Positions 5,563-59,444 of a stretch of DNA of 64,000 nucleotides are shown here, piece after piece. Position numbers and translations under genes: made by a program. The stretch is from an uncultured Pseudomonadales bacterium (GTDB lineage Bacteria; Patescibacteriota; Microgenomatia; UBA1400; CAYXSR01): the NCBI GenBank assembly GCA_964430265.1, contig CAYSEI010000003.1:65070-129069 (forward strand). The letters are read 5' to 3'. Numbering within the stretch: position 1 is the stretch's first letter; each line of letters begins with the position of its first letter. The notes below the pieces were generated by a model. That model made no database searches. It had not been told where the DNA came from and saw only the letters and a program-made list of their open reading frames with translations.

Positions 5563-5600
5563 TAATATAATTTTAACACAAGTTTGCCAGCAAACCCAAA

Positions 5601-37164: not shown

Positions 37165-37517
37165 TATATTTTCCCTAGATATTTTTTACGGAAATTGGAA
37201 AGGACGTCAATTAAAAAACTATCAATATCCGGTATCTTTTCTTTGATAAAGTCCTGGGTCTCTTTTTCAGTGGCATTGTTTTCCACCATTTGGACAAATT
37301 CTTTTCTATCTTCTTCCTCCATTTTAGCCAGTATTTTGGCATTAATGGTTCTTTGCAGCAAGTCTTGAAGATCAGCTTTTATTTTTTCAATTACCTGGGG
37401 GTCCATTTTGGCGGGATATTTTTTTTCTTTAACTAGTTGGTCAATAAAAGTTTCAAGGGAAGTATCAGCTTTGCTTTCTTCCGGGGGAGAATTTGTTTGG
37501 TCACTTTGGGCAGGCAT
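37164..37517 (-). CDS. Small helical hypothetical protein (117 aa), co-operonic with the giant gene
   Basis: Stop overlaps the start region of the giant ORF; charged helical sequence. Confidence 0.45.
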   Translation of the reverse strand: MPAQSDQTNSPPEESKADTSLETFIDQLVKEKKYPAKMDPQVIEKIKADLQDLLQRTINAKILAKMEEEDRKEFVQMVENNATEKETQDFIKEKIPDIDSFLIDVLSNFRKKYLGKI

Positions 37518-37660: not shown

Positions 37661-38575
37661 ATGGAAACAGGAGGAAAACCAATGCCGGAAGAAATACAAA
37701 CAAATGTTTCGCAAACAAATGCGGAAGCAGAAGCAGGAAGTGAGAAACAAGTATTAGCCTTGCTGGAGGAAACAGAAAACTTTATAGAAAAAACTGAAAA
37801 AGCAATTGAACAAGCGGATGCAGCAGTAGGTGGGAAAAAAGAAAAAATAGAATCAGAAAACTCAAGCCAGGATGAAAACTCAGATGAAAATTTGGATTTA
37901 GCTACTGCTGAAGCAGTGGCAGACCATTTGGAGGAAGTTGCTAAAAAGGAAGAAGAAAAACTTAATTCTGATCAAACTTCGGCTGAAGTAGGTGCTTTAG
38001 ATACTGCAGAGCAAGGACTGGAAACTGATAGCGCTGATGGAGAAGGTGTGGAATCAACAGAAGATAAAGAAGCTGATGTTAGTGAAGAGCAAATACAAGC
38101 AGGCGAAGAGGCAATGGAAATTTTAGACGAGGAAATTGATCCGGACGATCCGCAGTCTGCGGAAAAATTTACTGAATATAGGCAGAAACTAGTACAGTTG
38201 CTTAAAGATCATTATCACTTTGATAAGTTAAATTCTGAGCAAAAGCAGGCATTACTGGAAAAAATCAGTAATCTAACAATTAAGGATCTAGAAAAGCAAA
38301 ACTTGCAAGTTTTGGCAGAGCAACTGGGTATTGAACCACAACGTTTTTTTGATTTTAAGAATATGGCCTTGTCAGCTTTATTAAAAGGTCATGCACGTAA
38401 AAAAGACGGAAGTTTGGATTTGGACAAGATAGAAAAAGTAAACAAAGCATATTCCAAGTGGTTGAAAGCCAAAGAGATTGCGGATGCGCCGATCGGAGCT
38501 TACAATAATGCAAAAAGCTGGTTTGTCTTTATTTTTGAACAGTTTATGCAGCATGTTGTTGAAGAGAGGGTATAA
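37661..38575 (+). CDS. Acidic hypothetical protein (304 aa)
   Basis: Very glutamate/aspartate-rich N-terminal half, more structured C-terminal half; divergent from the giant-gene operon. Confidence 0.45.
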   Translation: METGGKPMPEEIQTNVSQTNAEAEAGSEKQVLALLEETENFIEKTEKAIEQADAAVGGKKEKIESENSSQDENSDENLDLATAEAVADHLEEVAKKEEEKLNSDQTSAEVGALDTAEQGLETDSADGEGVESTEDKEADVSEEQIQAGEEAMEILDEEIDPDDPQSAEKFTEYRQKLVQLLKDHYHFDKLNSEQKQALLEKISNLTIKDLEKQNLQVLAEQLGIEPQRFFDFKNMALSALLKGHARKKDGSLDLDKIEKVNKAYSKWLKAKEIADAPIGAYNNAKSWFVFIFEQFMQHVVEERV

Positions 38576-38626
38576 TTTCCTTTTCGGGCTTAATTTGGTA
38601 TAATAACTCCTTAAGAAAGGAGAAGA

Positions 38627-41600
38627 ATGAACGATTTAAACACACAACAAACTACTTCCACAACTCCGGAAAATGAACCAATGCCTGTTATTGATTTGGA
38701 AAGAGAAGAGAAAAAGGAAACTAAAAAGGAGAAAGAAAGTGTTGAAAAAAAACTACAAGATTTGAAGAATAAAGCAGAAGATCAAGTTCAAAACAAAACC
38801 TTGCGCGAGGAAGTGCAAAAAGAAATCGGAGAAATTGAAAAACTCCATCAAGCTTTGGAAGGTACATTTTTAGGTATTTTTTTGGAAGGAATAGACGACC
38901 GTATTCAAAGGGTCAATTCAGTAATTAATAAGGCAAAAGAAATAGAAGAGACAGAAACTATTGATGAAGCAAAAATGCAAAGAGTTGGCTTAAAAGAGCT
39001 TCAGAAACAACCAGTAAAAGAACAATTTTTAAATAGTGTGCAACAAAAGGCGATTGATATTTCTAAAGAAGAAACAGTAGAACAAACACTTTCTCAGGAT
39101 GAACTGAGTAGGTATCGTCAACAAGTGCTGGAGGTTGTTGAAAAAGCAAAACAAGAAGGAGATCTAGAAAGTACAACCAAAGCAGTGGAAAGATTAAAAA
39201 ATGGATTAAGTCAACTTGCGGAAAGCAAGGAAAGGACTGAGCAGGCGGAAAGAAGTCGGGAAAGACAGGTAGCAGTTGAAAGAGCCAGGGAAAAAGCGGA
39301 AGAAAAAGAACAAAAAATCAAAGAAAAAAGTAGGGTGACTGAGGAGGAAAAAGAGGAAGTTGTTGATCTTGCAGAACAATTAAAAGCAAGGCTGCGAAGA
39401 AGTGAAATTACAGAAGCTGGGAGGAAGATTATAAGGGATGAGGAATTAAAAAGTGTTTTACAGGGGCAAAGAGAGTCTGGATTGGATGTTGTAGACAATT
39501 TTCTGGATCAATTTAATGAATTAACAAATGAGGATATTTTAAATACTTTGGAAAGGGCGGGCAAAGAGCACATTGAAGAAGTAAAAAATCAGTTTGCCAG
39601 GTCCGCAGGTAGAATCAGGGAAAGGTTGATAAGCGAAAATTACAATACCCAAGATTTTGACGAAGCAATCAATAAAGTTTTTGTAAGACTGGACCAGCTT
39701 GCTGATCCGGAGCAAGCAAGGGAAGAGCAACAAGAACAAGAGGCAGAAAGACTAGAACACAATTTTGGCGGTAGAAGGGAAGAAAGCGGTCTGTTTGCTT
39801 TTAGAATGACAGAAAAAGATAGAGAACAAATGCAAGCCAGGCCATATTTTTATATCCGTAAACTTTTGGCTCAAGTTCATAGTGCAGGAGGAGAAAAAAG
39901 AATATTAATGGATACTTTGGAAACTGCGCAAAGATATTGGGAAGATTTGTACATTAATCATAAAGGAGAAATATTTAGCAAAGACTCAAAGTATACACAA
40001 GAAGAAAAACAAGAAATTTATAAACTGGTAAAAGAAACTTTTAGTAATGAAAAGCTTTTTATTGCTGCATACGGTAGTGCAGGTGTAGGTCAGAGTTTGG
40101 AAGGCAGGCAAAGAACCCGTGACTATTTTGATATTGAACAGATGCTGTTTTTTGATGAAGATTGGAGAATGCGTTTGTTTAAATCTGTTTATGAACAGGA
40201 AGATGTATCTTTTTTGCTGATGCGTTTGGGAGATCGGGTCAGAGAAGGAACCAATATCAGCGGATCTCTAGAAAATATGCGTGAATTTGCTAATAGTCTT
40301 CTTAAAGATGCTTTATCAGCAGAAAACCCCAATGCAGAACAAAGACGTCTGATTGAAAATGCTTTTTCAGGCATGTTTGATAATCCTTTGGAAAAAATGG
40401 ATTTGATCCGGGATATTACCGGGTTTAGTTCTGGAAAAGAAGAGGATTTTGGTATTTTAGAAGAGGAAATGGAGATGTTTTGGAGCTATGAAGACTGGAT
40501 TGGCAAGAACCCAGGTCTTGATATTTTATACCAGGACAAACATTATTGGCTGCCGGTTCATAGGGAAGGTGAAGAAGAAAACACAAGAGATCTGGGCAAT
40601 CCTTATTTAGACGAAGGATCAAGAATGGAAGTGATGATGGTGAAATTGGAAAAACTTAAAGGTAAGGAATTAAGTGAAGTGCTTGATAAATTAAGGTCTG
40701 TAGGGAAATATCGTTTTGAAACAGACAAAGGAAGTTTGGAAATTGATTTTGAAGAAGTTTTAGAAGGAGTTTCTGATAAAAAAGGAGCGGAAAGAATAAG
40801 AAATCAATTGCTTGAAACTCTGCTTAAAATAGAAGAAAAAAAACCAAGAAGTGAAAGAAAATCTAAACAGGAAATTATTCGCTCAGCAAAACAAAAAGCC
40901 CATGTTTTTGAACAGTTTTTTGAATACTGTAGAAGAGCGGATATGGGAGGAAGTCTTAGGGAATTGATTTCAATTAAAACAACTGCTAGAAGAAACAACT
41001 GGGATGGAGTGGAAAGTCTTGTTGATGATATTCAAAGAACAGCACCAGCAGGCGACTTTCATACAGAGTTTTTAGATTCGGCAGTTTTTAAAGGCAAAAA
41101 AAGAGCAATTGAACATGATGTTAAACAGGAAAAGTTTAGTAAAGAAGTTTTAAAAGGAAGAAAAGATGTTTCTGACGAAGAAAGGGACATGCTTTATGAA
41201 GAGTGGGAGCAAGAGTTAGGCAAGGAAGATAAAGAAAGTGAAAGAAACAAAATTAAGGATGAGGTTGATAAAAGGTTTTCCGAATGGAAAAAGGAATATG
41301 TTTTAGGAGAGGCAGCCCAGTTAATAGGTCCGGTGGGACAAGAAATTGGTGCACGTTTGGTTGAAGAAGGAGGCGGATGGATGATAAAAATGCCGGAGAT
41401 TGGTAGCAAAGCTAACATGGAACAAGTCTTAAAAAAGTTTAACCATGCTTTGGAAACCTGGAGTGCACTTTCAAAAGATGCATATGCGCATAAAAAAGTT
41501 GGTAATGCTGGAGACTGGCACGGGAGGTATGCAACTACGCATAAGGCACTAGAACATTTAAAAGAAATTGTGCGAATGGGAAGAAACAAGGCATTTATGG

Positions 41601-42091
41601 AAGGCAAAATTGGAGAACTATATGAATCATTAGGAGCGGACAATTATAAAACACCACCTAATGAAGGTAAAGCTGAATGGTATGATAGGCCGTTTGAAAT
41701 TCTTTTGGGTGGTGAACCTTTGGTAAAAACCCGGGCTGAAGAAGGGAAATTAAGGTCTTATCAAAACTGGTTGCGTGTGGCTCCTTTTCCAATTGAAGCA
41801 AAAGAAACAATATTAAGAAGCTTGCTTGCAGATCAATTGCCGGATGTTGATGCTTCAGAACCAATATATAAACAGTGGAAAGATAGATTAAAAAGGGAAA
41901 TTACTTATCAACGCTGGAAATTTAATGTATTAGGGCTTTATGAGACTATTGGTAAAAAATCCGCTCGCTGGGCATGGCTATTTTTACTGGGCCATTTAAT
42001 TGCTTCTGTTAATGTTTTGTTGAGTGAAACTGAGGGAATCGGAGATGTGGATGTTACTCCGTTTTTTGATCCGTTACAGGTTCTAAAATAA
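38627..42091 (+). CDS. Large (1154 aa) hypothetical protein with charged coiled-coil N-terminal region
   Basis: ~400 aa of E/K/R-rich heptad-like sequence, then a ~750-aa globular region; no NTP-binding motifs seen. Confidence 0.55.
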   Translation: MNDLNTQQTTSTTPENEPMPVIDLEREEKKETKKEKESVEKKLQDLKNKAEDQVQNKTLREEVQKEIGEIEKLHQALEGTFLGIFLEGIDDRIQRVNSVINKAKEIEETETIDEAKMQRVGLKELQKQPVKEQFLNSVQQKAIDISKEETVEQTLSQDELSRYRQQVLEVVEKAKQEGDLESTTKAVERLKNGLSQLAESKERTEQAERSRERQVAVERAREKAEEKEQKIKEKSRVTEEEKEEVVDLAEQLKARLRRSEITEAGRKIIRDEELKSVLQGQRESGLDVVDNFLDQFNELTNEDILNTLERAGKEHIEEVKNQFARSAGRIRERLISENYNTQDFDEAINKVFVRLDQLADPEQAREEQQEQEAERLEHNFGGRREESGLFAFRMTEKDREQMQARPYFYIRKLLAQVHSAGGEKRILMDTLETAQRYWEDLYINHKGEIFSKDSKYTQEEKQEIYKLVKETFSNEKLFIAAYGSAGVGQSLEGRQRTRDYFDIEQMLFFDEDWRMRLFKSVYEQEDVSFLLMRLGDRVREGTNISGSLENMREFANSLLKDALSAENPNAEQRRLIENAFSGMFDNPLEKMDLIRDITGFSSGKEEDFGILEEEMEMFWSYEDWIGKNPGLDILYQDKHYWLPVHREGEEENTRDLGNPYLDEGSRMEVMMVKLEKLKGKELSEVLDKLRSVGKYRFETDKGSLEIDFEEVLEGVSDKKGAERIRNQLLETLLKIEEKKPRSERKSKQEIIRSAKQKAHVFEQFFEYCRRADMGGSLRELISIKTTARRNNWDGVESLVDDIQRTAPAGDFHTEFLDSAVFKGKKRAIEHDVKQEKFSKEVLKGRKDVSDEERDMLYEEWEQELGKEDKESERNKIKDEVDKRFSEWKKEYVLGEAAQLIGPVGQEIGARLVEEGGGWMIKMPEIGSKANMEQVLKKFNHALETWSALSKDAYAHKKVGNAGDWHGRYATTHKALEHLKEIVRMGRNKAFMEGKIGELYESLGADNYKTPPNEGKAEWYDRPFEILLGGEPLVKTRAEEGKLRSYQNWLRVAPFPIEAKETILRSLLADQLPDVDASEPIYKQWKDRLKREITYQRWKFNVLGLYETIGKKSARWAWLFLLGHLIASVNVLLSETEGIGDVDVTPFFDPLQVLK

Positions 42092-42094: not shown

Positions 42095-43579
42095 TTAGGT
42101 TCTTCTGTTTCTTTCTGAAAGCTGTGCTTTAGTAAGCGCATCGCTTCTTCTCTGACGTCTCCATTGCTGATAAGATTGACGTACTTGCATAGGTCTTGCC
42201 ATACTGCCGGCAATTTGTTGGGCAACCATTCCACCCATTTTATCTTCAACACCAAAAGCTCCCTTAACAATTTCAGGTACTTTGGTAATCATTAAGATCA
42301 TGCCAAAGCCGATTACGGACAGAATTGGATTACCAAGAGAATTTCCTGATGTATTGAAGAATCCGAATAATGGAGGGACCCAAACGTTTTCATCGTTTTC
42401 AGTTGCACTATAATAACCCACATCGCAAGAAACACACCAAGGGTTTGAATCATCATTACATGCAGAATCACAATCTCCTGGTGTTACGTGTGATCTATTT
42501 CCCATCATTAAAGCGGCAACAAGAAACATTATCCCTACGGCGGGAAAAACTAAGATATTTGCAAGCAGGCTTTTAATCCAGTTTTTAAAACTGTCATTTC
42601 CGGGAATAGCGTTAAATAGAATTACTAAAGGTGAAAAAACAATTTGAACAACAACACTGACATATGTTTTTGCCAGTGAAAAGAAAATTTTGGCAATGTT
42701 AAAGAAAAGAACAAAAAACATAAAGGTAAACCCCAAATTTCCAACAAGTTTTCCTGAGATCCACCCAAGTCCTCGTCGGACTAAATTTTCATCACCAAAA
42801 AGACTATTGACTAAGTTATCCAATGCATGAGCAGGAGCTCTGGCAAAAAGCTTTTTACCAGAGAAGGTTATTTCAAACAGGTTTTTTCTTAATAAGTTTT
42901 GAATTACTTCTTCGGAACTAGTAATTAAACCGGAAAATTGTAAAAGACCGACAAAACCGTAAATAATAATATAAATAAGGTCAATTAGTAATCCGGCAAT
43001 TGCATAGGAAAAAGTAATTAAAAGCAATGTAACTACAATCCTTGGGAGGGCGGATTGCACAGTAATAACTGTTTGCGGGTCAATCTTGCTTCTAAACATT
43101 ATCATGAAGCCAACTATTATAAATATAAAAACAAAAAATACATAAGAGAGATTTCTAAAAGCCTTCCAGATTTCCAAAAAAGGAGCCAGTGCACGCCATC
43201 CTGTTGAATTTTCTTGTGCAAAAGCAGGGGAAGCAATCCCAATCCTTTGTCCAATATCTGCAAAATATTCAATACTGCTTGCGGGTGGACTGTCAATCAT
43301 GTAAGCAACTTGATTGGTTAACATTGGAATTAAACCGCTGGTACTTCCGTCTTGTTCGGAAGTTTCATACATGACTGTATTCAAGGATCCTGAGGTTGCT
43401 GCTACTGTTTGTGCCACCCAGCATTCTTGGTTCATCTGACCTTCTTCACATTTCTCCAGTGCATTTTTAAAGCTTTGTTGAGCTTCAGATTGGGCAATAG
43501 CAGGATTAGGGGATAAGAAAAGGAAAGCGGTAAAAACAAACAGTAAACTAACAAATATAATAGTTTTTAAATTTTTCAT
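42095..43579 (-). CDS. Polytopic membrane protein with signal peptide and large N-terminal extracytoplasmic domain (VirB6/TrbL-like candidate)
   Basis: Signal peptide ending AIAQ, ~150-aa periplasmic domain, at least 5 TM helices, Cys-rich loop; immediately downstream of the pilin array. Confidence 0.45.
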   Translation of the reverse strand: MKNLKTIIFVSLLFVFTAFLFLSPNPAIAQSEAQQSFKNALEKCEEGQMNQECWVAQTVAATSGSLNTVMYETSEQDGSTSGLIPMLTNQVAYMIDSPPASSIEYFADIGQRIGIASPAFAQENSTGWRALAPFLEIWKAFRNLSYVFFVFIFIIVGFMIMFRSKIDPQTVITVQSALPRIVVTLLLITFSYAIAGLLIDLIYIIIYGFVGLLQFSGLITSSEEVIQNLLRKNLFEITFSGKKLFARAPAHALDNLVNSLFGDENLVRRGLGWISGKLVGNLGFTFMFFVLFFNIAKIFFSLAKTYVSVVVQIVFSPLVILFNAIPGNDSFKNWIKSLLANILVFPAVGIMFLVAALMMGNRSHVTPGDCDSACNDDSNPWCVSCDVGYYSATENDENVWVPPLFGFFNTSGNSLGNPILSVIGFGMILMITKVPEIVKGAFGVEDKMGGMVAQQIAGSMARPMQVRQSYQQWRRQRRSDALTKAQLSERNRRT

Positions 43580-43623
43580 TGCTTTGATTTTAATTAATTT
43601 TACTCTTATTTACAAGCTGATGT

Positions 43624-43953
43624 TTAGTTAACAATTTTAAAAACAGTTACTTCAACACCGGTAAAGGATTCAATTATTCGGAATATAAACCAGACTCCTA
43701 TTATCAATATTAATCCAATTAATGCAGTAGTAATTGTTTTTTTTGCTTGCTGGGTTTGTTCTGGGTTTGCTCCTGCGGTAAGGAATTGGAAACCTCCAAT
43801 TAAAAGCATAATAAAAAGTACAATTGCACCGGCAGTGGTGATCAAAGATAAAATATTGCCAATCAATATTTCCAGATCGCCAAAGTCTGCCGGTTCATTT
43901 GCAGGAGAATCCCATTCTTCTAATTGAGCATAAACAGTTGATACTAGGCTCAT
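43624..43953 (-). CDS. VirB2/TrbC-like pilin paralog
   Basis: Leader ending VYAQ; helix 1, GGFQFLTAGANPEQ…AKKTITTALIGLILI, helix 2: a two-helix pilin pattern shared with the neighbours. Confidence 0.5.
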   Translation of the reverse strand: MSLVSTVYAQLEEWDSPANEPADFGDLEILIGNILSLITTAGAIVLFIMLLIGGFQFLTAGANPEQTQQAKKTITTALIGLILIIGVWFIFRIIESFTGVEVTVFKIVN

Positions 43954-43962
43954 AAATATGTT

Positions 43963-44343
43963 TTATCTAATAGATGGGATGTCAATTTCGCTAAAGCTGA
44001 CGCCAAAGAATTGACCCACCAATTGCATAACTGCCCAAGCTGCGGCAACAATTGCCAAGCCAACTAAAGCAGCAGTTATTTTGTTGCGTGCCTCTTCATA
44101 TTGTGCTTTGTCTCCACCTGAGGTTATCCATTGAATTCCGCCCCAGACTAGGTATACAAAGGTTAAAAGTCCGGCGATTGCCAAAATAACAGTAATGCCA
44201 TTTTGAATTAATTGTCCTAATCTGCCTTCGGGAACGCCTTGTTCTGGCGGTTCCACTACAATGTCTTGTGCATAAGCAACAGATCCAGACAATAAAGTTG
44301 TTAAAACTGAACTGCCTAATTTTGCTAATTTTTTCATATTCAC
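43963..44343 (-). CDS. VirB2/TrbC-like pilin paralog
   Basis: Signal peptide ending AYAQ; WGGIQWITSGGDKAQYEEARNKITAALVGLAIVAAAW core. Confidence 0.5.
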   Translation of the reverse strand: MNMKKLAKLGSSVLTTLLSGSVAYAQDIVVEPPEQGVPEGRLGQLIQNGITVILAIAGLLTFVYLVWGGIQWITSGGDKAQYEEARNKITAALVGLAIVAAAWAVMQLVGQFFGVSFSEIDIPSIR

Positions 44344-44399
44344 CTCCTTTAATCTTATTTTTTAATTATAACTATCCCTTCTCTGTTGTCAAGGGAAAA

Positions 44400-44756
44400 T
44401 TAGATACCGAGATTAAATACTGCGTTTGTTCCGGTTGTCCCAATACCCAAGAATTTAATTGCCAGCCGCCAAATTACCCAAGCCACTGCTAGTAATGCAA
44501 GTCCAATCAAAGAATGAAGCATTTTGTTGCGTGCATCTTCTACCCGTGACTTGTCGCCTTCAGCAGTAATATATTCTAAAGCACCCCATACAAAATATCC
44601 CAGTGTAAGAAGGGCTCCAATAGCAATTGCAAAGGTAACTATATTAGAAACAAGAGTTCCAATATTTTTGATTTCAAACAATGCATCTGCTTCATCCCGG
44701 ATATTAGTGTTTACGGGTTGTGCGTATACTGGAGGAATAATGTTTAATAAATTCAT
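44400..44756 (-). CDS. VirB2/TrbC-like pilin paralog
   Basis: VYAQ leader; WGALEYITAEGDKSRVEDARNKMLHSLIGLALLAVAW core. Confidence 0.5.
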   Translation of the reverse strand: MNLLNIIPPVYAQPVNTNIRDEADALFEIKNIGTLVSNIVTFAIAIGALLTLGYFVWGALEYITAEGDKSRVEDARNKMLHSLIGLALLAVAWVIWRLAIKFLGIGTTGTNAVFNLGI

Positions 44757-44757
44757 T

Positions 44758-45093
44758 TTATTGTGGTGTTGGCCAAACTATATTTAATATATCAAAACCA
44801 AAGATTGCTTCCGCCAGGATCATAATAGCAAAGGATCCGGCTAAAAGAGCCATACCAATGAAAGCATGAGTGATTTTATTTTTAGCTGCTTCCAGTTTAT
44901 CTGGTTTGCCTTCACTCATCAGCCAGTCAACTGCACCCCAGACAAAGTATAGAAGAAGAGCCACACCGCCTACGACAACAACAGTCCTCCATAAACGGAC
45001 AAATAATGGTGCAAGTGGGTTACCGGCAACGCCAGTATATCCGCCTTCTGAATTTGGCAAAACTGGATTAGTAATTTGTGCTATTTTTTTCAT
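44758..45093 (-). CDS. VirB2/TrbC-like pilin paralog
   Basis: WGAVDWLMSEGKPDKLEAAKNKITHAFIGMALLAGSF core. Confidence 0.5.
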   Translation of the reverse strand: MKKIAQITNPVLPNSEGGYTGVAGNPLAPLFVRLWRTVVVVGGVALLLYFVWGAVDWLMSEGKPDKLEAAKNKITHAFIGMALLAGSFAIMILAEAIFGFDILNIVWPTPQ

Positions 45094-45473
45094 CAGCTCC
45101 AGAAATTTCTTATATATTCTCCCGGGTTTAATATATTTACTCCCAGGATTGATCCTACTATAAATATTACTGCATAAGCTGCCACAACTACAATAAGACC
45201 AATAGCAGCGTCTGTCAGCATTTTTTTGGATTTTTCCACTTGGTCCTGCTTACCTCCAGCAGTTATCCAATTCAGCCCGCCAATAAAAAAGTAGATAATA
45301 AAAAGAATTCCGGCAACAATTGTAAATGTGCCAATTACATTGGAAAGAATTTTTTCAAGTGTAGGAATTCCGTAATCTCCGGTATTGGGATTATAAGCTC
45401 CGGTAATTCCTTCTATTGCACCAAGATTCTCTTGGGCATAGACTTCTGTTATTAAGTTATTTAAAATTTTCAT
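45093..45473 (-). CDS. VirB2/TrbC-like pilin paralog
   Basis: VYAQ leader; IGGLNWITAGGKQDQVEKSKKMLTDAAIGLIVVVAAY core. Confidence 0.5.
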   Translation of the reverse strand: MKILNNLITEVYAQENLGAIEGITGAYNPNTGDYGIPTLEKILSNVIGTFTIVAGILFIIYFFIGGLNWITAGGKQDQVEKSKKMLTDAAIGLIVVVAAYAVIFIVGSILGVNILNPGEYIRNFWS

Positions 45474-45856
45474 ATTCCTGGTCCATAAATTTTAGGTTGT
45501 AATATTGCTGTTGCATCTTTAAAGATCAGCCATCCAAGTAAAGCAGCGATAGTAAATGAAGCAACAATGATTACCAGACCAAGAAGTGAATTAAATATTT
45601 TTTGCCAGGCGTTTTGAATTTTCTCAGGATCACCACTGGCAGTAATAAAGTCAAATCCGGCCAGAAGAAGATTAAAAAAAGTCCAAATTCCGGCAACAAT
45701 AGTTAAGGTTTTAACAATATTGCTGAGAAATCCTACCAGTCCGCCGTTGGGATTATTGTAGTCTCCATATCCGTCTTGAAGAGGGTTGCTGATATTGCCA
45801 AAAACGTCTTGCGCATAGGCAGTGGAAACAATTTTGTTATATATTTTATTAATCAT
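45470..45856 (-). CDS. VirB2/TrbC-like pilin paralog
   Basis: AYAQ leader; LAGFDFITASGDPEKIQNAWQKIFNSLLGLVIIVASF core; start trimmed to the Met giving an ATGA overlap with the upstream gene. Confidence 0.5.
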   Translation of the reverse strand: MINKIYNKIVSTAYAQDVFGNISNPLQDGYGDYNNPNGGLVGFLSNIVKTLTIVAGIWTFFNLLLAGFDFITASGDPEKIQNAWQKIFNSLLGLVIIVASFTIAALLGWLIFKDATAILQPKIYGPGI

Positions 45857-46173
45857 ATTCCAGTACCTTCCAAAATTGGCACTCCTGTAATGTATTGTAC
45901 TATTTGAATAATCCAAAAAGCAGCAAATACCAAAATAAATCCAATTATTGCTGCTGTGATCGCTTTACTGCCTTGTGCTTTTTGCTGCGGATCATTTCCA
46001 CTCGTTATTATAGCAAAACCGCCTCCTATGAGCAAAAAGAAAAGTAATAGGCCTGCTACCATTAGGACGTTGGGTAAAATAGCGGTAATAAATTCGCCAA
46101 TGCTGCCGTAGCCGGTTTTATTGGCTATTCCTTCGTTTCCAAGTTTAAATTTGTCTCCAATATCTACTGGCAT
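45853..46173 (-). CDS. VirB2/TrbC-like pilin paralog (first gene of the array)
   Basis: IGGGFAIITSGNDPQQKAQGSKAITAAIIGFILVFAAF core; a TGcTATAAT-like -10 element lies ~8 nt upstream of the ATG on the minus strand (about 46180-46190). Confidence 0.5.
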   Translation of the reverse strand: MPVDIGDKFKLGNEGIANKTGYGSIGEFITAILPNVLMVAGLLLFFLLIGGGFAIITSGNDPQQKAQGSKAITAAIIGFILVFAAFWIIQIVQYITGVPILEGTGI

Positions 46174-46253
46174 TTGCAGATATTATAGCATGTAAAACTA
46201 AAAGAGTGAAAGAGGGGAAGCTTTTTAATTGTAGGTGTTGATATAATACGTTT

Positions 46254-47237
46254 ATGCTGAAAAAAGAAATTTTAAAGTTTAAAAACCAGTTTGATCCGCT
46301 GTTAAAGAAAAAACTAAAAAAGGAAGAAAGTCTTTTTTTTAAAGAATATTCACTGCTTATTAGAGAGATTGAAAGAGTAACCTTTTCTGGAGGAAAACGG
46401 ATCAGGCCATTGTTGGTATGTTGGGGGTATCAAGCAGTTGGTGGAGGAAATTTTGCAGATGTAGTTGATGCATGCTTTAGTATTGAACTTTTTCATACAT
46501 TTGCTTTGATACACGATGATATTATGGATAAATCAGAAAAACGTAGAGGTAAAATAACTACTTGGAAAAAAATAGGAGTTGATAAAGCAATTTTGACAGG
46601 AGACTTGTGTTTAAGTTTAGCGGATGAATACTTTCCTCAAAAAGCAAATAAAAAATATTTTAATTTATTAAAAAAAGAAACCTGTCTGGGTCAGTATTTG
46701 GATATTCAGAACAATAAAGAATTTAGTGAAAAACAAGTAAGAAAAATTTTAGATTTTAAAACTGCAAAATATACAATTGTCCGTCCTTTGCAGATTGGTG
46801 CTAGTTTTAAAACGCAAGATGATAAAATTATGAAGCTTTTTTTGAAATATGGTAAAAGAATGGGAACAGCATTTCAAATAAAAGATGATTTATTGGGTGT
46901 TTTTGGAGAAGATAATAAAACAGGCAAGCCAGTTGGAGAAGATATTAGTGAAGGGAAAAAAACCTTGCTGATTGCAAAGTTAAAAAAAATAGGAAAAAGT
47001 ATGAAAAAAAAGGAGAAAGAAAAATTTTCAAATTTGTTTAACTGTAAAAAAAGATTAAACAAGAGTGAACAGAAATTCATTATTAACCTTTTTAAAAAAT
47101 ATAATATAGACAAAGAAGTAATTGCAGAAATGCAAAAAGAAGCAGAACAGGCAAGAAAGATAATCAACAATTCGGATATAAAAGAAAAAGAAAAACTTTT
47201 ACAAATGACTCAATATCTTATTAATAGAGAACATTAA
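46254..47237 (+). CDS. Short-chain trans-polyprenyl diphosphate synthase (GGPP/FPP synthase type)
   Basis: First DDxxD motif LIHDDIMD and second FQIKDDLLG; 327 aa. Confidence 0.85.
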   Translation: MLKKEILKFKNQFDPLLKKKLKKEESLFFKEYSLLIREIERVTFSGGKRIRPLLVCWGYQAVGGGNFADVVDACFSIELFHTFALIHDDIMDKSEKRRGKITTWKKIGVDKAILTGDLCLSLADEYFPQKANKKYFNLLKKETCLGQYLDIQNNKEFSEKQVRKILDFKTAKYTIVRPLQIGASFKTQDDKIMKLFLKYGKRMGTAFQIKDDLLGVFGEDNKTGKPVGEDISEGKKTLLIAKLKKIGKSMKKKEKEKFSNLFNCKKRLNKSEQKFIINLFKKYNIDKEVIAEMQKEAEQARKIINNSDIKEKEKLLQMTQYLINREH

Positions 47238-47780
47238 ATGAACGAAAAAAAACTGATTAGCAAAATACTTAAAGGAAACAAGCGAGCAAAAAAGAAATTT
47301 TATCAGTATTATAAGCCGCGGCTGGTTAAATATATCCAAATAAAAACGCCAAATAAACAAGATGCAGAAGAGATTTTACAAGATACATTTATGTCTGCTT
47401 TTTTATCTTTGCCTAATTTTAAACAGGACAGTTCTTTGTATACATGGCTTTGTTCAATAGCCCGGCATGAAATAGCGGATTTTTACCGCAAAAAAAAGAT
47501 TAAGACTATTGTTTTTTCCCGCTTGCCTTTTCTAGAAAATTTATTTTCTGAAGCTTTGGGACCGGAATTAAAATACAAGGAAAAGAAGATAAAGGAAAAG
47601 ATTAGTGATTCTTTTGGCAGTTTAAAAAAAGAATACGTGCAAATTCTCAAACTTAAATATATTCATAACAAATCGGTGAAAGAGATTGCTAAAATACTGG
47701 GTAAGAGTTTTAAAGCAACAGAATCACTTCTTTACCGGGCAAGAAAAGCATTTCAAAGGGAATACTTATTGCTTGATTAA
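47238..47780 (+). CDS. ECF-type RNA polymerase sigma-70 family factor
   Basis: Region 2 (…DTFMSAFLSLPNF…YTWLCSIARHEIADFYRKK) and region 4 HTH (…VKEIAKILGKSFKATESLLYRARKAF…). Confidence 0.65.
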   Translation: MNEKKLISKILKGNKRAKKKFYQYYKPRLVKYIQIKTPNKQDAEEILQDTFMSAFLSLPNFKQDSSLYTWLCSIARHEIADFYRKKKIKTIVFSRLPFLENLFSEALGPELKYKEKKIKEKISDSFGSLKKEYVQILKLKYIHNKSVKEIAKILGKSFKATESLLYRARKAFQREYLLLD

Positions 47781-47824
47781 AAGCAAATTCGAATGATTTT
47801 TCTTTTTTTTACGACAGATATAGT

Positions 47825-48166
47825 GTGACTAACAAAGTAAAAAAAGTTTGTAAATACACGATATTGTTTTCTATCAAAGAATCTTATCTTTTTGTGCGCA
47901 ATTTACTGGGTTTATGGACACATCCGTATAAAACACTGCGTTTAATTAAAAAAGAAAAAGATTATAGTCAGGCAATTCTTGTATTAGGATTCCCTTTTTA
48001 CATTATTTTCTTTGGCACCTTTTTTATATTCTTTTCTCGGATACTGATTGGTGCTCCCTCTGATTGGGGAAGATTAGCGCAAGCAAGTTTTTATTCATTG
48101 TTTTTTATTTCTTTTATGGTTTTTATATACATTACTTATTGGGGAATGAAGGTTAGAAAGGATTAA
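47825..48166 (+). CDS. Small membrane protein (possible anti-sigma factor partner)
   Basis: 113 aa with 2-3 TM helices immediately downstream of the ECF sigma gene; function from context only. Confidence 0.3.
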   Translation: MTNKVKKVCKYTILFSIKESYLFVRNLLGLWTHPYKTLRLIKKEKDYSQAILVLGFPFYIIFFGTFFIFFSRILIGAPSDWGRLAQASFYSLFFISFMVFIYITYWGMKVRKD

Positions 48167-48167
48167 A

Positions 48168-48464
48168 ATGGGAAAATATGAACGATATCGTAGTGAACGA
48201 TTATTTAGGGCAAGTTTTTCCCGGGATGGATTTGAAAATGGTTTAGGATTAGCTCATAGAACAGGATTACAGAAAGAGATGATTACCATTCCCAAAAGTG
48301 TTTGGGGGATACAAAGGTCTTCGCCTACTGAAAGTTTAGGCGAGGAGAAAATAATTGAAATGAGAGAAGATGTTGAAGCAATGTTAAAGCTAAGAAGCAA
48401 TGGCCATAATTTGGATGGACTTTATACTATTAAAGATTTTGAAGAAGTAGGAATATTGGAATGA
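48168..48464 (+). CDS. Hypothetical protein (98 aa)
   Basis: ORF translationally coupled with idi (overlap ATGA at 48461); no family recognised. Confidence 0.4.
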   Translation: MGKYERYRSERLFRASFSRDGFENGLGLAHRTGLQKEMITIPKSVWGIQRSSPTESLGEEKIIEMREDVEAMLKLRSNGHNLDGLYTIKDFEEVGILE

Positions 48465-48970
48465 AAGTTGTTGTAGTTAATAAAAATGACAAAGAAATAA
48501 GTTTTTTGGGCAAAATAAAAGCACACAAAAAAGGAAAACTACACCGCGCATTTTCTATTTTTGTGTTTAATGATCAAGGTGAATTATTAATTCAAAAACG
48601 TTCCAAACACAAATTGTTGTGGCCGGAATTTTGGTCAAATACTGTATGTTCACATCCTTTACCAAAAGAAGAAACTATTGATGCCGCACAAAGAAGGCTA
48701 AAGGAAGAATTTGGTTTTTCAACAGAATTAGGGCTGGAGTATAGATTTCAGTATTATGCTGAATATGGTGATGTGGGAATAGAACATGAGCTTTGCCATG
48801 TTCTTATCGGGAATTACAATGGTAAAGTAAAGCCGGACAAAAAAGAAATTGCTGATTATAAATGGATAAATATTAACAAATTAAAACAACAGATTAAAAG
48901 AAGTCCGGATAAGTTTACTCCTTGGTTTAAAAAGGAGTTTAAAGAATTAGTAAAAAGGGGAATAATTTAA
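48461..48970 (+). CDS. idi: Isopentenyl-diphosphate delta-isomerase, type 1 (Nudix)
   Basis: HRAFSIFVFNDQGELLIQKRSKHKLLWPEFWSNTVCSHP and Nudix-box-like ETIDAAQRRLKEEFG. Confidence 0.85.
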   Translation: MKVVVVNKNDKEISFLGKIKAHKKGKLHRAFSIFVFNDQGELLIQKRSKHKLLWPEFWSNTVCSHPLPKEETIDAAQRRLKEEFGFSTELGLEYRFQYYAEYGDVGIEHELCHVLIGNYNGKVKPDKKEIADYKWININKLKQQIKRSPDKFTPWFKKEFKELVKRGII

Positions 48971-49929
48971 TGGTTAAAGTTTCTGCGCCTGGGAAAATCC
49001 ATTTATCCGGTGAACACAGTGTCGTTTACAAAGAGCCAGCTCTTTTATCAACTCTTAATAAGAGACTGTATATAGAGATACAAGAAAAGGAAAATCAAGG
49101 ATTTATAATTGAAGATTTAGAACAAAAGCTAGAAGAAAAAATTAATTTTCCAGAATTAAAGGAATTTTCAAAAAAAACAGTAGAAGTTTGGAAGAATAAT
49201 GATAGATTAGGATTAGTGAAGGCTAGTATTGTGGAGTTTTTTAAATATTTAAACCAAGAGCCGAAAAAGGGGTTTCAGGTAAAAATTAAATCACAAATTC
49301 CTATTGGAGTAGGATTGGGTTCTTCAGCTGCATTGTCAGTCTCTTTAGCAGGAGCATTTTTAAAATATTATAAAAAATGGTCATTGAGTGAAATAAACAA
49401 GGTAGCCTATTTAATTGAAAAAAGGCAGCATAAAAGTCCTAGTGGTGGTGACAATACTGTATCGACGTATGGTGGATATATTTACTATGTTAAAAATGAA
49501 GAGATACAAAAATTTAATGGAAAGACATTAAAAGATTTTTATATTATAAACTCAGGAAGACCATTGGAATCAACAGGAGAAATGGTGGATTTGGTAAGTA
49601 ACAATTTAAATAAAAAAACTATAAAAAAAATGGGGGAAACTACAGTTGCTTTAAAAAATGCAATTGAGAAAAAAGAATATCAAGAAATAAAAAAGCTAAT
49701 TAAGAGAAATGAAAGATTGTTAGAAGAAATTGGAGTTGTGGGAGAAAGAGCGAAAAGAATAATTAGAGAGATTGAGAAAAATAGAGGTTCTGCTAAAATA
49801 TGCGGAGCTGGAGCGGTAAAGCAAGGATCAGGTATAATATTAGCCTATAAGCCGGATATTGATAGTTTAAATGTGGAATTTGAAAAACTAAAATTAGGGG
49901 TGGAAGGAGTCAGAATTGAAAAAAGTTAA
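48970..49929 (+). CDS. GHMP kinase, mevalonate kinase
   Basis: N-terminal APGKIHLSGEHSVVY; ATP-binding PIGVGLGSSAALSVS; 319 aa. Confidence 0.65.
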   Translation: MVKVSAPGKIHLSGEHSVVYKEPALLSTLNKRLYIEIQEKENQGFIIEDLEQKLEEKINFPELKEFSKKTVEVWKNNDRLGLVKASIVEFFKYLNQEPKKGFQVKIKSQIPIGVGLGSSAALSVSLAGAFLKYYKKWSLSEINKVAYLIEKRQHKSPSGGDNTVSTYGGYIYYVKNEEIQKFNGKTLKDFYIINSGRPLESTGEMVDLVSNNLNKKTIKKMGETTVALKNAIEKKEYQEIKKLIKRNERLLEEIGVVGERAKRIIREIEKNRGSAKICGAGAVKQGSGIILAYKPDIDSLNVEFEKLKLGVEGVRIEKS

Positions 49930-50890
49930 ATGCTCTGCACCAGGTAAATTAATGCTTTTTGGTGAACATGCAGTTGTACACGGAAAGCCTTGCATTGTAA
50001 CTGCGGTTGACCAAAGGATTCATGTAGAGGCAGAAGAGAATGGAAAAGATGAATTGGTTGTAAATGCTCCCCAGTTAGGGATTAAAAACTATCATAAAAC
50101 AGTAAAAGAGCTTTGTAACCAGGAAATGCCTAAACAGGTCAGTTTTATTGAAGCTTTGGTAAAGCGGTTTTATGAAAAATATGGACTTGAAAAAGGTTTA
50201 AATATTACTACCAATTCAGAGTTTTCCCATACATACGGTTTTGGGTCTTCATCAGGAGTAACAATTGCTACTACAAAAGCTTTGTCACTTTTATATGATA
50301 TTCAGCTGTCGGAAAAAGAGATCTTTGACCTTGGGTATCAAGCGGTTCTTGATATCCAAAAAGTCGGCAGCGGATTTGACTTGGCTGCAGCTTTATGGGG
50401 GAAGATTATTTATTACAAAAAAGGTGCAGAAATAGTAGAAAGACTAAGTGTGCATAATCTCCCCCTTGTTGTTTGTTATTCAGGAATTAAAGCAGATACA
50501 CCTACGCTTGTAGAGCAAGTTAATGAATTTAAAAGAAAAAAACCTAAAAAAGTTGCAAACATTTTTAAACAAATGCAGGAAATTGTAGATCTAGCAAAAA
50601 AACTTATACCCCAGAATAAATGGGAGGAGTTAGGTAAACTAATGAATCAAAACCAGGAATTATTGGAAGAATTAGGTGTTTCAACCTACAGATTGGAAAA
50701 CTTGATTAGTGCGGCAAGAGATGCGGATGCATTGGGTGCTAAATTGTCTGGAGCTGGAGGGGGAGATTGTATTATTGCCTTGGTTGAGGAAAATAAAAAG
50801 ATAAAAGTTAAAAAGGAACTGGAAAATGCAGGCGGACAAATAATGGATGTTAAATTAAATTCCAAGGGGGTTAAATGTCAGGAAATATGA
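49916..50890 (+). CDS. GHMP kinase, probable phosphomevalonate kinase
   Basis: APGKLMLFGEHAVVHG; GFGSSSGVTIA; second GHMP kinase, placed between mvk and mvaD. Confidence 0.5.
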   Translation: MKKVKCSAPGKLMLFGEHAVVHGKPCIVTAVDQRIHVEAEENGKDELVVNAPQLGIKNYHKTVKELCNQEMPKQVSFIEALVKRFYEKYGLEKGLNITTNSEFSHTYGFGSSSGVTIATTKALSLLYDIQLSEKEIFDLGYQAVLDIQKVGSGFDLAAALWGKIIYYKKGAEIVERLSVHNLPLVVCYSGIKADTPTLVEQVNEFKRKKPKKVANIFKQMQEIVDLAKKLIPQNKWEELGKLMNQNQELLEELGVSTYRLENLISAARDADALGAKLSGAGGGDCIIALVEENKKIKVKKELENAGGQIMDVKLNSKGVKCQEI

Positions 50891-51870
50891 AAGCCAGCTG
50901 CAAGTCTCCGGCAAACATTGCTTTTATAAAATATTGGGGAAAGACTGATCCTGAAACACGTGTGCCGCAGAACAATTCCATTTCAATGTGTTTGTCTAAT
51001 CTTTACAGTATATGTACTGTAAAATTTGATGAAAAATATGCTGAAGACGAAGTCCAATTTTTAAATGAAAAAGTAGTTAAGGATAGGGAAATTAAAAGAA
51101 TAATTGAAACTTTGGATCGGGTGAGGAATAAAGCAGGGATAAGTTATAAAGCAAAAGTAGTAACTAAAAACAACTTTCCCAAAGCAACTGGGATTGCTTC
51201 TTCAGCTTCCGGACTGTCTTCTTTAACTGTGGCTGCGGCAAAAGCAGCTGGATTAGATTTGAATAAAAAAGAGATGTCGAAGCTGGCAAGACTGGCTTCA
51301 GGTACTGCTTGTAGGTCAATACCGGATGGTTTTGTGGAATGGGAAAAAGGAACGTGTAAAAAAGACTCATATGCAAAACAAATATATCCCACCGATTACT
51401 GGGATATAGTGGATATTGTAGCTATTGTGACTAAGAAAATGAAAAAAATTTCCTCAACCAATGGCCACAGTATGGCGGATACCAGCCCTTTTCAAGAAAC
51501 AAGAATTAAAAATATGCCAGAAAAAATTAAAAGATTTAAAAAAACACTTGAAAAAAAGGATTTTTATGAATTTGGCAATATTTTGGAAAAAGAAAGTTTA
51601 AATATGCATGCAATCTGTTTAACCAGTAAGCCGCCGATCCTTTATTGGGAAGCAACAACCATGACAATAATGCGTAAAGTTCGGGAGTGGCGTTCAAAGG
51701 GTTTGCCTGTGTATTTTACAATTGATGCTGGTCCAAGTGTGCACATAATTTGTAAAGGTAAAAGTGCGGAAATTGTGCAGGAAAAGCTGAAAAAAATAAA
51801 AGGGATTGACAGGATTTCTCTTAACAGGTCTGCAAAAGGGGCAAAAATAATAAAAAAACATTTGTTTTAA
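50875..51870 (+). CDS. mvaD: Diphosphomevalonate decarboxylase
   Basis: SPANIAFIKYWGK N-terminal signature and GHMP-like ATP loop (…TGIASSASGLSSL…). Confidence 0.85.
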   Translation: MSGNMKASCKSPANIAFIKYWGKTDPETRVPQNNSISMCLSNLYSICTVKFDEKYAEDEVQFLNEKVVKDREIKRIIETLDRVRNKAGISYKAKVVTKNNFPKATGIASSASGLSSLTVAAAKAAGLDLNKKEMSKLARLASGTACRSIPDGFVEWEKGTCKKDSYAKQIYPTDYWDIVDIVAIVTKKMKKISSTNGHSMADTSPFQETRIKNMPEKIKRFKKTLEKKDFYEFGNILEKESLNMHAICLTSKPPILYWEATTMTIMRKVREWRSKGLPVYFTIDAGPSVHIICKGKSAEIVQEKLKKIKGIDRISLNRSAKGAKIIKKHLF

Positions 51871-51885
51871 GGAGTTGCGGTAATA

Positions 51886-52584
51886 ATGCAGAAATTATGC
51901 GGTAATAAACTACCTAAACACGTTGCTTTTATAGTTGATGGCAACCGTCGCTGGGCAAAAAAGAATAATCTTTCAAGTATGGCTGGACATCGTCATGCAA
52001 TGTACAATGTTTTGGATCCAATTGCTTTTCATTGCATAAAGTTAGGTATTCCATATTTAACTTACTGGGTTTTTTCCACGGAAAATTGGAAAAGAGGCAA
52101 AAGGTTTTACAATGCGCTTTTTAAGCTTTTGGAAGAAGGGTTAAACAAGGGTTTTGAAAAATATGACAAGGCAGGCATCCGTTTAAATACTATTGGCAAC
52201 TTAAGTGAAATCCCTTCCCATTTGGCAAAGAAAATAAAGGAGTGGGAGGAATTAAGTAAAAATAACAAAAATTTAACAGTTACTATTGCTTTAAATTACG
52301 GTGGTAGAGAGGAAATAGTTCGAGCAGTAAACAAATACAACGAGCAGGAAAAAAGAAAATTAAATGAAGAAAAATTCCCTCAGTATTTAGATACCGCAGA
52401 CTTGCCGGATCCGGATTTAATTATTCGTACTGGAGGAGAAAAAAGACTTTCCGGCTTTTTATTATGGCAGTGCCAGTACTCGGAGCTTTATTTTACTGAC
52501 ACATTAATGCCGGATTTCAGTATAGAAAAATTTGAAAAAGCTTTAAAAGATTTTTGTCAAAGGCAGAGGCGCTTTGGAAAATAA
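51886..52584 (+). CDS. uppS: Undecaprenyl-diphosphate synthase (cis-prenyltransferase)
   Basis: HVAFIVDGNRRWAKK, …YWVFSTENWKR…, and C-terminal RFG. Confidence 0.85.
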   Translation: MQKLCGNKLPKHVAFIVDGNRRWAKKNNLSSMAGHRHAMYNVLDPIAFHCIKLGIPYLTYWVFSTENWKRGKRFYNALFKLLEEGLNKGFEKYDKAGIRLNTIGNLSEIPSHLAKKIKEWEELSKNNKNLTVTIALNYGGREEIVRAVNKYNEQEKRKLNEEKFPQYLDTADLPDPDLIIRTGGEKRLSGFLLWQCQYSELYFTDTLMPDFSIEKFEKALKDFCQRQRRFGK

Positions 52585-52902
52585 TTAGATACCTAGCATG
52601 GCTTTAACAATTTGGTAGATCCAAAAAGAAAGAAAAACAACTCCAAAACCAATAGCTCCATTTGTCAAGCTTTTTTTAGCATTAGCCATTGTTTCTTCAT
52701 TACCAGCAGAAGTCATTAATTGAAAGCCACTGCCTAAAATGATAAAAAGAAGAATTAAGCCAGCGATTACAAAAACATAGTCTAAAGCAGAAGTAATAAC
52801 TGTTCCTAAAGTTGCATCTGGACCACTAAATTTAAAACCGCTTGGATCATTTACGTGTCCTGAGCCGGTTAGTCCTGGCAAAGACAGCCATAATAACATC
52901 AT
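52585..52902 (-). CDS. VirB2/TrbC-like pilin paralog
   Basis: LGSGFQLMTSAGNEETMANAKKSLTNGAIGFGVVFLSF core matching the 43.6-46.2 kb array. Confidence 0.45.
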   Translation of the reverse strand: MMLLWLSLPGLTGSGHVNDPSGFKFSGPDATLGTVITSALDYVFVIAGLILLFIILGSGFQLMTSAGNEETMANAKKSLTNGAIGFGVVFLSFWIYQIVKAMLGI

Positions 52903-58907: not shown

Positions 58908-58965
58908 TAAGCCTGTTAAAGTCTATTTACATTCATCCTATAATTTAGTAAAATATACCTGTAAT

Positions 58966-59400: not shown

Positions 59401-59404
59401 CTTT

Positions 59405-59428
59405 GGGGCTTTTTAAAGCCCCTTTTTT
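59405..59428 (+). terminator. Rho-independent terminator after ssrA
   Basis: GGGGCTTT/AAAGCCCC hairpin followed by TTTTTT. Confidence 0.7.
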
Positions 59429-59444
59429 GTTTTATGCTAAATTA

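Follow-up and report, generated by a model that had tools for sequence, protein, structure and literature searches.

What does a bacterium build from seven different pilin genes placed one behind the other? The question is raised by a 64,000-nucleotide stretch of DNA from an uncultured member of the Microgenomatia (contig CAYSEI010000003.1, positions 65,070 to 129,069 of the forward strand), referred to here as the window. A minus-strand run of seven small open reading frames (ORFs), from 46173 to 43624, is followed by a 494-codon ORF at 43579-42095, and the pilin genes and this VirB6-like gene make up a single co-oriented block. The block is the pilin module of a chromosomal, origin-proximal type IV secretion system (T4SS) typical of Patescibacteria, and is an instance of a published system rather than a new kind. 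To judge from sequence comparisons, the seven paralogs (pil1 to pil7, numbered from the upstream end) are distinct ancient classes, and throughout the Microgenomates group each has its 1:1 ortholog in the matching array position. What is new here is the case against pilin variation in this clade, a candidate major subunit, and the identification of a divergent VirB6-like protein.

Few machines have been shown to be essential to a cultured Patescibacterium in its epibiotic life, and the T4SS is one of them. In the cultured Saccharibacterium Southlakia epibionticum a pilin array of six genes lies inside the T4SS cluster and is essential (Wang et al. 2023, PMC10633639). Among 3,035 genomes searched with the PF18895 and PF04956 models, Quiñonero-Coronel et al. 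(2025, PMC12102498) counted 441 arrays with 2-11 pilin genes each; members of an array are on average 25% identical, and Microgenomatia and Saccharimonadia are rich in such arrays. The same study places the T4SS of Patescibacteria near dnaA and without relaxases, reports few VirB6 homologs from Microgenomatia, 'suggesting extreme sequence divergence', and proposes that the paralogs may aid adaptation to different hosts. A 2025 review highlighted the possibility of a pilus in a monoderm. The system derives from monoderm (Firmicutes/Actinobacteria/Tenericutes/Archaea-type) conjugation machinery, that is, from the mating-pair-formation class MPF-FATA.

All seven small proteins reach the gathering score of the Pfam family T4SS_pilin (PF18895; 29.1-45.5 bits against a threshold of 26.6), and with seven of seven above the cut-off the similarity is not due to chance. 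Each has two hydrophobic segments by the Kyte-Doolittle scale, the two-helix architecture reported in a preliminary description of the locus. Pairwise identity among the seven is 23-45%, with pil5 the closest paralog of pil6 (45%). By their sequences they belong to the T4SS_pilin family and are VirB2-like in architecture; canonical VirB2/TrbC membership is not demonstrated. The best NCBIfam match of all seven is NF045849 (Mbov_0395 pilin-like conjugal transfer protein), whose threshold is passed by pil7 only (41.2 against 40 bits), and a few pil6 orthologs (P0161, P0193) carry a precomputed match to PF04956. An AlphaFold2 model of pil6 built from 56 sequences is a helical hairpin with helices at residues 39-72 and 77-111 (predicted local distance difference test score, pLDDT, 81.6, with the core above 90).

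Relatives of the seven proteins are all found in Patescibacteria (the candidate phyla radiation, CPR), mainly in the Microgenomates group, and at E <= 0.001 an exhaustive search with the pilin profile returned 82,295 cluster representatives. Among the best relatives in the public protein library, many are single polypeptides with 2-17 tandem hairpins (for instance P0242, P0245, P0253, P0295 and P0265, with 6 units in 552 aa or 11 units in 1147 aa), which have one N-terminal signal peptide and no obvious breaks between the units. Such polyproteins suggest that different hairpins work side by side.

A leader ending in (V/A)YAQ, noted early on as frequent in the array, is indeed present in pil2, pil3, pil5, pil6 and pil7. 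Only pil6 has a classical Sec-type signal peptide with n-, h- and c-regions (ending SGSVAYA-Q); the leaders of pil2, pil3, pil5 and pil7 are 10-16 residues long, and pil1 and pil4 have none. The N-terminal leaders, YAQ included, are poorly conserved among orthologs, which keep only an alanine at position -1, in classes 3 and 6, as at an ordinary signal-peptidase site. YAQ was therefore rejected as a dedicated processing motif of the family.

The spacing of the genes divides the array. ATGA overlaps join pil1 to pil2 and pil2 to pil3, pil3 and pil4 overlap by 1 nt in TGATG, and a 1-nt spacer separates pil4 from pil5. pil1-pil5 are translationally coupled in one operon, which implies their co-expression. 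Further on there are gaps of 62 nt ahead of pil6, 9 nt ahead of pil7 and 44 nt ahead of the 494-aa gene, so that the 'ATGA or zero-gap' junctions once ascribed to the entire run are limited to the first five genes. All seven consecutive genes of that account are present; its upper size of 148 aa corresponds to an upstream TTG start of pil2, and the plausible starts give proteins of 106-128 aa. From the ATG at 45856, in the ATGA overlap with pil1, pil2 encodes 128 aa. For pil6 the most likely start is the ATG at 44337 just behind AAAGGAGGTG, giving 124 aa (126 aa from a GTG).

The same array is found in related genomes. The loci L001, L002/L003, L004 and L005 (a Beckwithbacteria metagenome-assembled genome in which gene 4 is broken by a run of N) have seven T4SS_pilin genes upstream of a VirB6-like gene, in the same order and orientation. 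BLASTP matrices of the window's seven proteins against those of L001, L002, L004 and L005 are strictly diagonal, the best match always lying at the same array position. Identity of the positional orthologs to the window is 60-73% in L001, 47-75% in L002, 36-65% in L004 and 44-60% in L005; pil1 is 60-61% identical in L001, L002 and L005, pil3 72% in L001, and pil6 73-75% in L001 and L002. For the VirB6-like protein, identity to the window is 49% in L001, 46% in L002/L003, 33% in L004 and about 35% in L005. Other genes compared between the window and L001 gave 38% for the polyprenyl synthase, 29% for a 1154-aa neighbor, 68% for a sigma factor and 60% for a NUDIX isomerase. By this measure the pilins are among the best conserved genes of the locus.

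We scanned one genome per species with a profile of the VirB6-like family and obtained 80 loci, most of them from Microgenomates lineages (Beckwith-, Chisholm-, Curtiss-, Collier-, Shapiro-, Gottesman-, Roizman- and Pacebacteria). Typing of the pilin ORFs with class-specific hidden Markov models (HMMs) yielded 54 complete arrays from genomes of the Microgenomates group, of which 30 have seven genes, 16 six, three eight, one nine and four fewer than six; in every case the genes follow the order 1-2-3-(4)-(5)-6-7. On 32 seven-gene arrays, a test that made no use of the class HMMs placed the best foreign match at the same position in 221 of 224 cases, with a mean same-position identity of 56% at position 6 and 44-48% at the other positions. 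Alignments of 20-65 orthologs per class reveal class-specific motifs in the presumably exposed N- and C-terminal tails, such as a C-terminal ILxPKIYGPG in class 2 (55 orthologs), ITNPVL and RLWR in class 4, and DIGDKF in class 1. The Saccharimonadia locus L006 lacks an adjacent array. These comparisons point to duplications older than the radiation of the Microgenomates group and to strong purifying selection on all seven genes.

Expression signals set pil6 apart from its neighbors. The -10 box of the promoter-like site upstream of the array (Table 1) ends 8 nt ahead of the pil1 ATG, without a Shine-Dalgarno sequence and with the same layout in L001, L002 and L004; given this distance, the transcript is probably leaderless. 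An internal promoter-like site that matches the consensus at every position lies in the gap ahead of pil6 and is followed by the ribosome-binding site AAAGGAGGTG, and equivalent promoter and ribosome-binding signals are present in the same gap of L001, L002 and L004. A crude scan of 51 arrays detected a promoter-like site at position 6 in 18 arrays, at positions 1, 2, 3 and 7 in 1-4 arrays each, and at 10 of 90 middle-position genes. A strong Shine-Dalgarno sequence was found at position 6 in 31 of the 51, at positions 1, 2, 3 and 7 in 2-18 each, and at 12 of the 90 middle-position genes. We propose, purely by inference, that pil6 is the major subunit and that the other pilins are accessory to it in one heteromeric assembly.

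The 494-aa protein encoded after the array starts with a signal-like segment, after which come about six or seven further hydrophobic ones. It gave no match to the TrbL/VirB6 family (PF04610) at E <= 1, and only 4 of 65 aligned homologs match that model (best E 2.1e-5). A search returned 492 homologs at E <= 0.001, with Patescibacteria as the source of essentially all; among the 120 listed, one carries a precomputed PF04610 match. By sequence, the family profile found nothing in the PDB. An AlphaFold2 model was obtained with a pLDDT of 83 and a predicted template modeling score of 0.67, and in a Foldseek search with this model TrwI chains took ranks 1-8 (best E 0.018, probability 0.97-0.98). 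The VirB6 fold is the top match by two methods, with modest scores (14-16% identity, template modeling score 0.22-0.35). Because the two methods agree and the genomic context fits, the designation 'VirB6-like' is supported, and on the strength of the model the protein is a candidate for the hard-to-detect VirB6 of Microgenomatia. Its gene adjoins the array in the window, L001, L002 and L007 and is linked to it in most other loci. The linkage is kept in dozens of genomes, in some of which genes for PrgI and a VirB4 N-domain lie within 10 kb; in L004 the array and all three of these genes are inside 16 kb. The VirB6/TrbL-like protein of the preliminary description holds up in its signal-like segment, its at least five transmembrane helices and its fold; the match to PF04610 is lacking.

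Two short motifs of this protein deserve comment. The Cys-rich loop mentioned in the preliminary description is real and has four cysteines (C370, C374, C382 and C385). However, it is present in only 5 of the 65 aligned homologs, the closest relatives, and 52 of the 65 have no cysteine there; it is therefore a local peculiarity, and was rejected as a feature of the VirB6 family. A PAYAQG-type motif, part of the stretch that the family conserves most strongly, is invariant or nearly so in the 65 homologs, just ahead of the first core helices, and is similar to the (V/A)YAQ with which pilin leaders end. An hhalign comparison aligned the pilin hairpin with residues 114-201 of the VirB6-like protein, where two helices come after the motif, with a probability of only 30%, and there is a weak TrbC match at residues 115-165. 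Motif and alignment together make an unproven lead.

An HMM built from the seven pilins picks up two further paralogs in the window, both above the PF18895 cut-off, which accounts for the 'nine paralogs' of which the preliminary description had spoken. The larger, of 283 aa, starts with a signal peptide, continues with a very Cys-rich ectodomain of about 180 aa and ends in a T4SS_pilin hairpin. The pair lies 6 kb from the main array, and several other loci carry it too, upstream of their main array. The middle of a 1362-aa protein encoded between pil7 and the VirB6-like gene in L005 shares 49% identity with the pilin domain of the 283-aa protein, and in most other Microgenomates a far larger protein sits between gene 7 and the VirB6-like gene. 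The 283-aa fusion is a candidate tip or adhesin subunit.

Further T4SS genes lie next to dnaN. The VirB4-type ATPase matches the Pfam families P-loop_TraG, AAA_10 and CagE_TrbE_VirB and, with 284 bits, the VirB4 model of the mycoplasma integrative and conjugative element (ICE). To judge from the overlapping N-domain ORF, VirB4 appears to be split over two genes in the window. In L004 there is no ATPase gene between the N-domain gene and dnaN. A gene of the PrgI family comes next, followed by several large unannotated proteins. No relaxase or type IV coupling protein domain was found in the scanned window ORFs of at least 100 aa, within the limits of Pfam, which matches none of several large proteins.

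Old duplications, a fixed order, constraint on each copy and the coupling of pil1-pil5 together argue for subunits that work together and not for interchangeable variants. Of the kinds of diversification first considered for the array, the data favor the functional one, in the form of fixed specialized subunits. We suggest that the seven pilins and the two extra paralogs would be inserted in the membrane as helical hairpins. With the VirB6-like protein as platform, and powered by the VirB4 ATPase, they would assemble together into a single heteromeric structure, an extracellular conduit or a short pilus. The bulk subunit would be pil6, with its own consensus promoter, strong ribosome-binding site, full signal peptide and highest conservation. 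pil1-pil5 and pil7 would be low-abundance accessory ('minor') subunits, translated by coupling from the leaderless transcript, and the 283-aa Cys-rich fusion may form a distal, tip or adhesive component. Contact and exchange with the host cell, not conjugation, would be the purpose of the structure, since the window yielded neither a relaxase nor a coupling protein. We consider the chances of a heteromeric filament or conduit to be evenly balanced. The full picture, of seven to nine subunits with one separately transcribed major pilin, six ordered minor pilins, a Cys-rich tip and a divergent VirB6, is offered more tentatively and is less likely than not.

In the T4SS pili known so far, VirB2 forms what is essentially a homopolymer, and VirB5 sits at the tip. 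A heteromeric set would, if real, give a pilus of a new architecture, one that has converged on the division into major and minor subunits known from type IV pili and from the pseudopili of type II secretion, and the 'missing' VirB6 of Microgenomatia would have been identified. Published work treats the arrays as a possible source of variability; here they form a conserved ordered set with one probable major subunit. The question shifts from which variant is used to what heteromeric structure the subunits build together, and pil6 and the VirB6-like protein are the first targets for further study.

Several observations weigh against a heteromeric pilus. The canonical TrbC/VirB2 model PF04956 is matched below threshold by pil2 (18.3 bits, E 0.0027, against 27.9) and not at all by the other six, so the original assignment to VirB2/TrbC pilins stands for PF18895 and falls short for PF04956. 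The pilin profile, compared by sequence with the PDB, gave chance matches only and no solved VirB2, TraA or TrbC chain. A Foldseek search of the PDB with the pil6 hairpin returned nothing significant or informative; so simple a fold as a two-helix hairpin is not diagnostic, and the result was for this reason set aside as support for VirB2 membership. The promoter-like motif at position 6 is seen in just the 18 arrays counted above, and the role proposed for pil6 is read from expression signals and conservation. Some arrays have six or eight genes, and to that extent the set is not absolutely fixed. Pilus formation would be an extrapolation from diderm VirB2, and we know of no filament seen for any T4SS of Patescibacteria. 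Finally, the tandem polyproteins could equally fit a membrane-embedded bundle.

In the strongest rival, the hairpins would join the VirB6-like and VirB3-like proteins in the cytoplasmic membrane and build there a ring or a helical gate of mixed subunits. This hetero-oligomer would be the translocation pore of a monoderm T4SS, with a parallel in principle in the FliPQR export gate, which is also built of hairpins. The nearest curated relative of the pilins outside Pfam is a Mycoplasma ICE family, NF045849, and mycoplasmas have no cell wall and are not known to make conjugative pili. Proteins of 2-17 fused hairpins suit a fixed membrane bundle better than a polymerizing filament, and the weak hhalign likeness between pilin hairpin and VirB6-like protein points the same way. 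However, nine hairpin proteins, one of them with a 180-aa Cys-rich ectodomain, seem more than a pore needs, and a separately and, by its sequence signals, strongly expressed pil6 suggests a polymer with one abundant component. Weighed on sequence evidence, the membrane-embedded gate is possible but on the doubtful side, and the extracellular filament or conduit keeps its balanced chances.

A different use of the array would be as a repertoire, in which the paralogs are alternative major subunits that vary a surface filament to evade immunity or host defenses or to match host strains. The VirB2 paralog families of Bartonella and Anaplasma are read as lineage-specific amplifications for surface variation. 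That reading is cited in the survey of patescibacterial arrays, where the variant-pilin idea, raised for the Bartonella Trw and Anaplasma VirB2 paralogs, is tentatively extended to Patescibacteria (PMC12102498). Beside this published analogy, the idea draws on the many divergent tandem copies and on an array size that varies somewhat, from 6 to 9, between genomes. However, positional orthology is strictly 1:1 even where the VirB6-like proteins are only 30-49% identical, and the orthologs are better conserved than the flanking genes. The translational coupling of pil1-pil5 implies co-expression, and covalently fused multi-hairpin proteins exist. The alignments expected to set a conserved loop against variable termini instead show exposed tails with conserved class motifs, and the expected copy-number variation is limited largely to seven or six genes in one order. 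Amplification of the Bartonella/Anaplasma type, specific to a lineage and with copy number and sequence varying between close relatives, is not what we observe. Antigenic diversification, favored in the preliminary description as one explanation of the seven paralogs, is for these reasons very improbable.

An unrelated two-helix membrane family that only happens to lie here, for example one of holins, of bacteriocin immunity proteins or of subunits of small transporters, is suggested by the small size and two membrane segments of the proteins and by weak sub-threshold matches to assorted membrane families and domains of unknown function (DUFs), but is effectively refuted by nine of nine paralogs above the T4SS_pilin cut-off, a PHROGs scan of the small proteins without matches to holins or other phage proteins, where the preliminary description had named a better holin-like match as the adverse outcome, and the conserved linkage to a VirB6-fold protein in dozens of genomes.

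The locus shares with the described T4SSs of Patescibacteria a monoderm-type VirB4, PrgI/VirB3, tandem divergent PF18895 pilins, the lack of a relaxase and a place beside dnaA and dnaN (PMC12102498, PMC10633639). It departs from the published picture in that a gene that is VirB6-like by fold directly follows the array and in that the paralogs form a fixed ordered orthologous set (PMC12102498). Like the VirB2/TrbC/TraA pilins of diderms, the small proteins have about 100-130 aa, with a leader ahead of two hydrophobic helices and with a short polar loop, and are encoded beside virB6-like and virB4 genes. Unlike them, they remain below the PF04956 threshold, mostly have a leader of 10-16 residues or none, and exist as nine paralogs in place of a single gene; their host is a monoderm, and VirB5, VirB7, VirB9 and VirB10 of diderm T4SSs are absent from the window.

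As in Bartonella Trw, with its tandem trwL genes, and in the virB2 families of Anaplasma and other Rickettsiales, VirB2-like genes are multiplied in tandem in a non-conjugative T4SS of a host-associated bacterium. However, the duplications in the window appear to predate the Microgenomates radiation, and each copy is individually conserved. Mbov_0395 of the Mycoplasma ICE (NF045849) resembles all seven pilins as their best NCBIfam match, and its VirB4 partner matches as well; Mbov_0395 is a single gene on a mobile element, whereas the window has nine chromosomal copies and no hallmarks of a mobile element. TrwI/VirB6 of plasmid R388 (PDB 7O3V), the best structural match of the 494-aa protein, is likewise polytopic, helical and encoded beside pilin genes. 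The 494-aa protein is about twice as long and has an extra N-terminal helical domain, the PAYAQG motif and the lineage-specific four-Cys loop.

Table 1. Positions of the features discussed, counted from the first nucleotide of the window
Feature	Position	Strand	Description
dnaA	14755-16140		at the cumulative GC-skew minimum
dnaN	16486-17607		at the cumulative GC-skew minimum
VirB4-type ATPase	17612-19663	-	683 aa; adjacent to dnaN; NF045971 (CD1110 family), 389.5 against 325 bits
'TraC-like' VirB4 N-domain ORF	19572-20276	-	234 aa; 50% identical to a stand-alone 313-aa protein of L004
PrgI family (VirB3-like) protein	20295-21431	-	378 aa; PF12666, 40.1 against 27 bits
PP2C-containing giant protein	within 28261-37517	-	2967 aa; weak glycosyltransferase-2 matches; preceded by a DUF5663 protein
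Acidic Glu/Lys-rich proteins	37661-42091	+	304 and 1154 aa; no family match; converging on the VirB6-like gene
1154-aa protein of this pair	38627-42091	+	C-terminal hydrophobic segment
VirB6-like polytopic membrane protein	42095-43579	-	494 aa
PAYAQG-type motif	43213-43236	-	residues 115-122 of the VirB6-like protein; AFAQ here at 119-122; low-confidence linker of the model
pil7	43624-43953	-	109 aa; T4SS_pilin, PF18895 45.5 bits
pil6	43963-44337	-	124 aa; T4SS_pilin, PF18895 42.6 bits; candidate major subunit
Internal promoter-like site	44365-44392	-	TTGACA-16-TATAAT; 12/12 consensus matches; in the 62-nt gap ahead of pil6
pil5	44400-44756	-	118 aa; T4SS_pilin, PF18895 43.5 bits
pil4	44758-45093	-	111 aa; T4SS_pilin, PF18895 29.1 bits; no YAQ leader; ITNPVL and RLWR motifs
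pil3	45093-45473	-	126 aa; T4SS_pilin, PF18895 33.1 bits
pil2	45470-45856	-	128 aa; T4SS_pilin, PF18895 35.2 bits; conserved C-terminal ILxPKIYGPG tail
pil1	45853-46173	-	106 aa; T4SS_pilin, PF18895 36.3 bits; no YAQ leader
Array promoter-like site	46182-46210	-	TTCACT-17-TATAAT with upstream TG; 10/12 consensus matches
Isoprenoid genes	46254-52584		between the main array and the extra pilin pair
ECF-type sigma factor and small membrane protein	47238-48166		divergent from the pilin array
Ninth paralog	52585-52902	-	105 aa; T4SS_pilin, PF18895 43.6 bits
Eighth paralog	52904-53755	-	283 aa; PF18895 32.5 bits at residues 213-270
SmpB, tmRNA, ComFC-like protein, two tRNA genes	58476-61433
tmRNA gene	58966-59400
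ComFC-like protein	59403-60137
ORF overlapped by a tRNA gene	60121-61317	-	annotated TTG start
tRNA gene	61220-61304

Between the VirB4 block and the pilin block sits the pair of genes for the DUF5663 protein and the giant protein. The pair is syntenic in L001, where the large protein has 3132 aa with FHA, YscD-like and GT9 domains. Homologs of the 304-aa and 1154-aa acidic proteins are found at the same place in L001 with 29-33% identity. The convergent neighbor in L004, of 1131 aa, has no detectable similarity to any protein of the window.

On the other side of the array, the isoprenoid genes encode a polyprenyl synthase, the lower mevalonate pathway (two GHMP kinases, MVD and a NUDIX protein) and UppS. 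In L001 the isoprenoid cluster (1-7337 of that locus) comprises thiolase, HMG-CoA synthase, HMG-CoA reductase, GHMP-kinase and NUDIX genes, and L002 has at the same position (1-6597) genes of the methylerythritol phosphate (MEP) pathway, namely Dxr, IspD, IspF, IspE-like, GcpE and LytB. The isoprenoid gene content beside the pilin array varies between related genomes. The extracytoplasmic function (ECF)-type sigma factor gene of the window is accompanied by the gene for a small membrane protein that may be an anti-sigma factor. L001, L002, L004 and L005 also have a sigma factor gene at this position.

Farther from the array lies the segment with SmpB and the tmRNA gene. One of its two tRNA genes overlaps the annotated TTG start of a minus-strand ORF (Table 1), which therefore probably starts further downstream.

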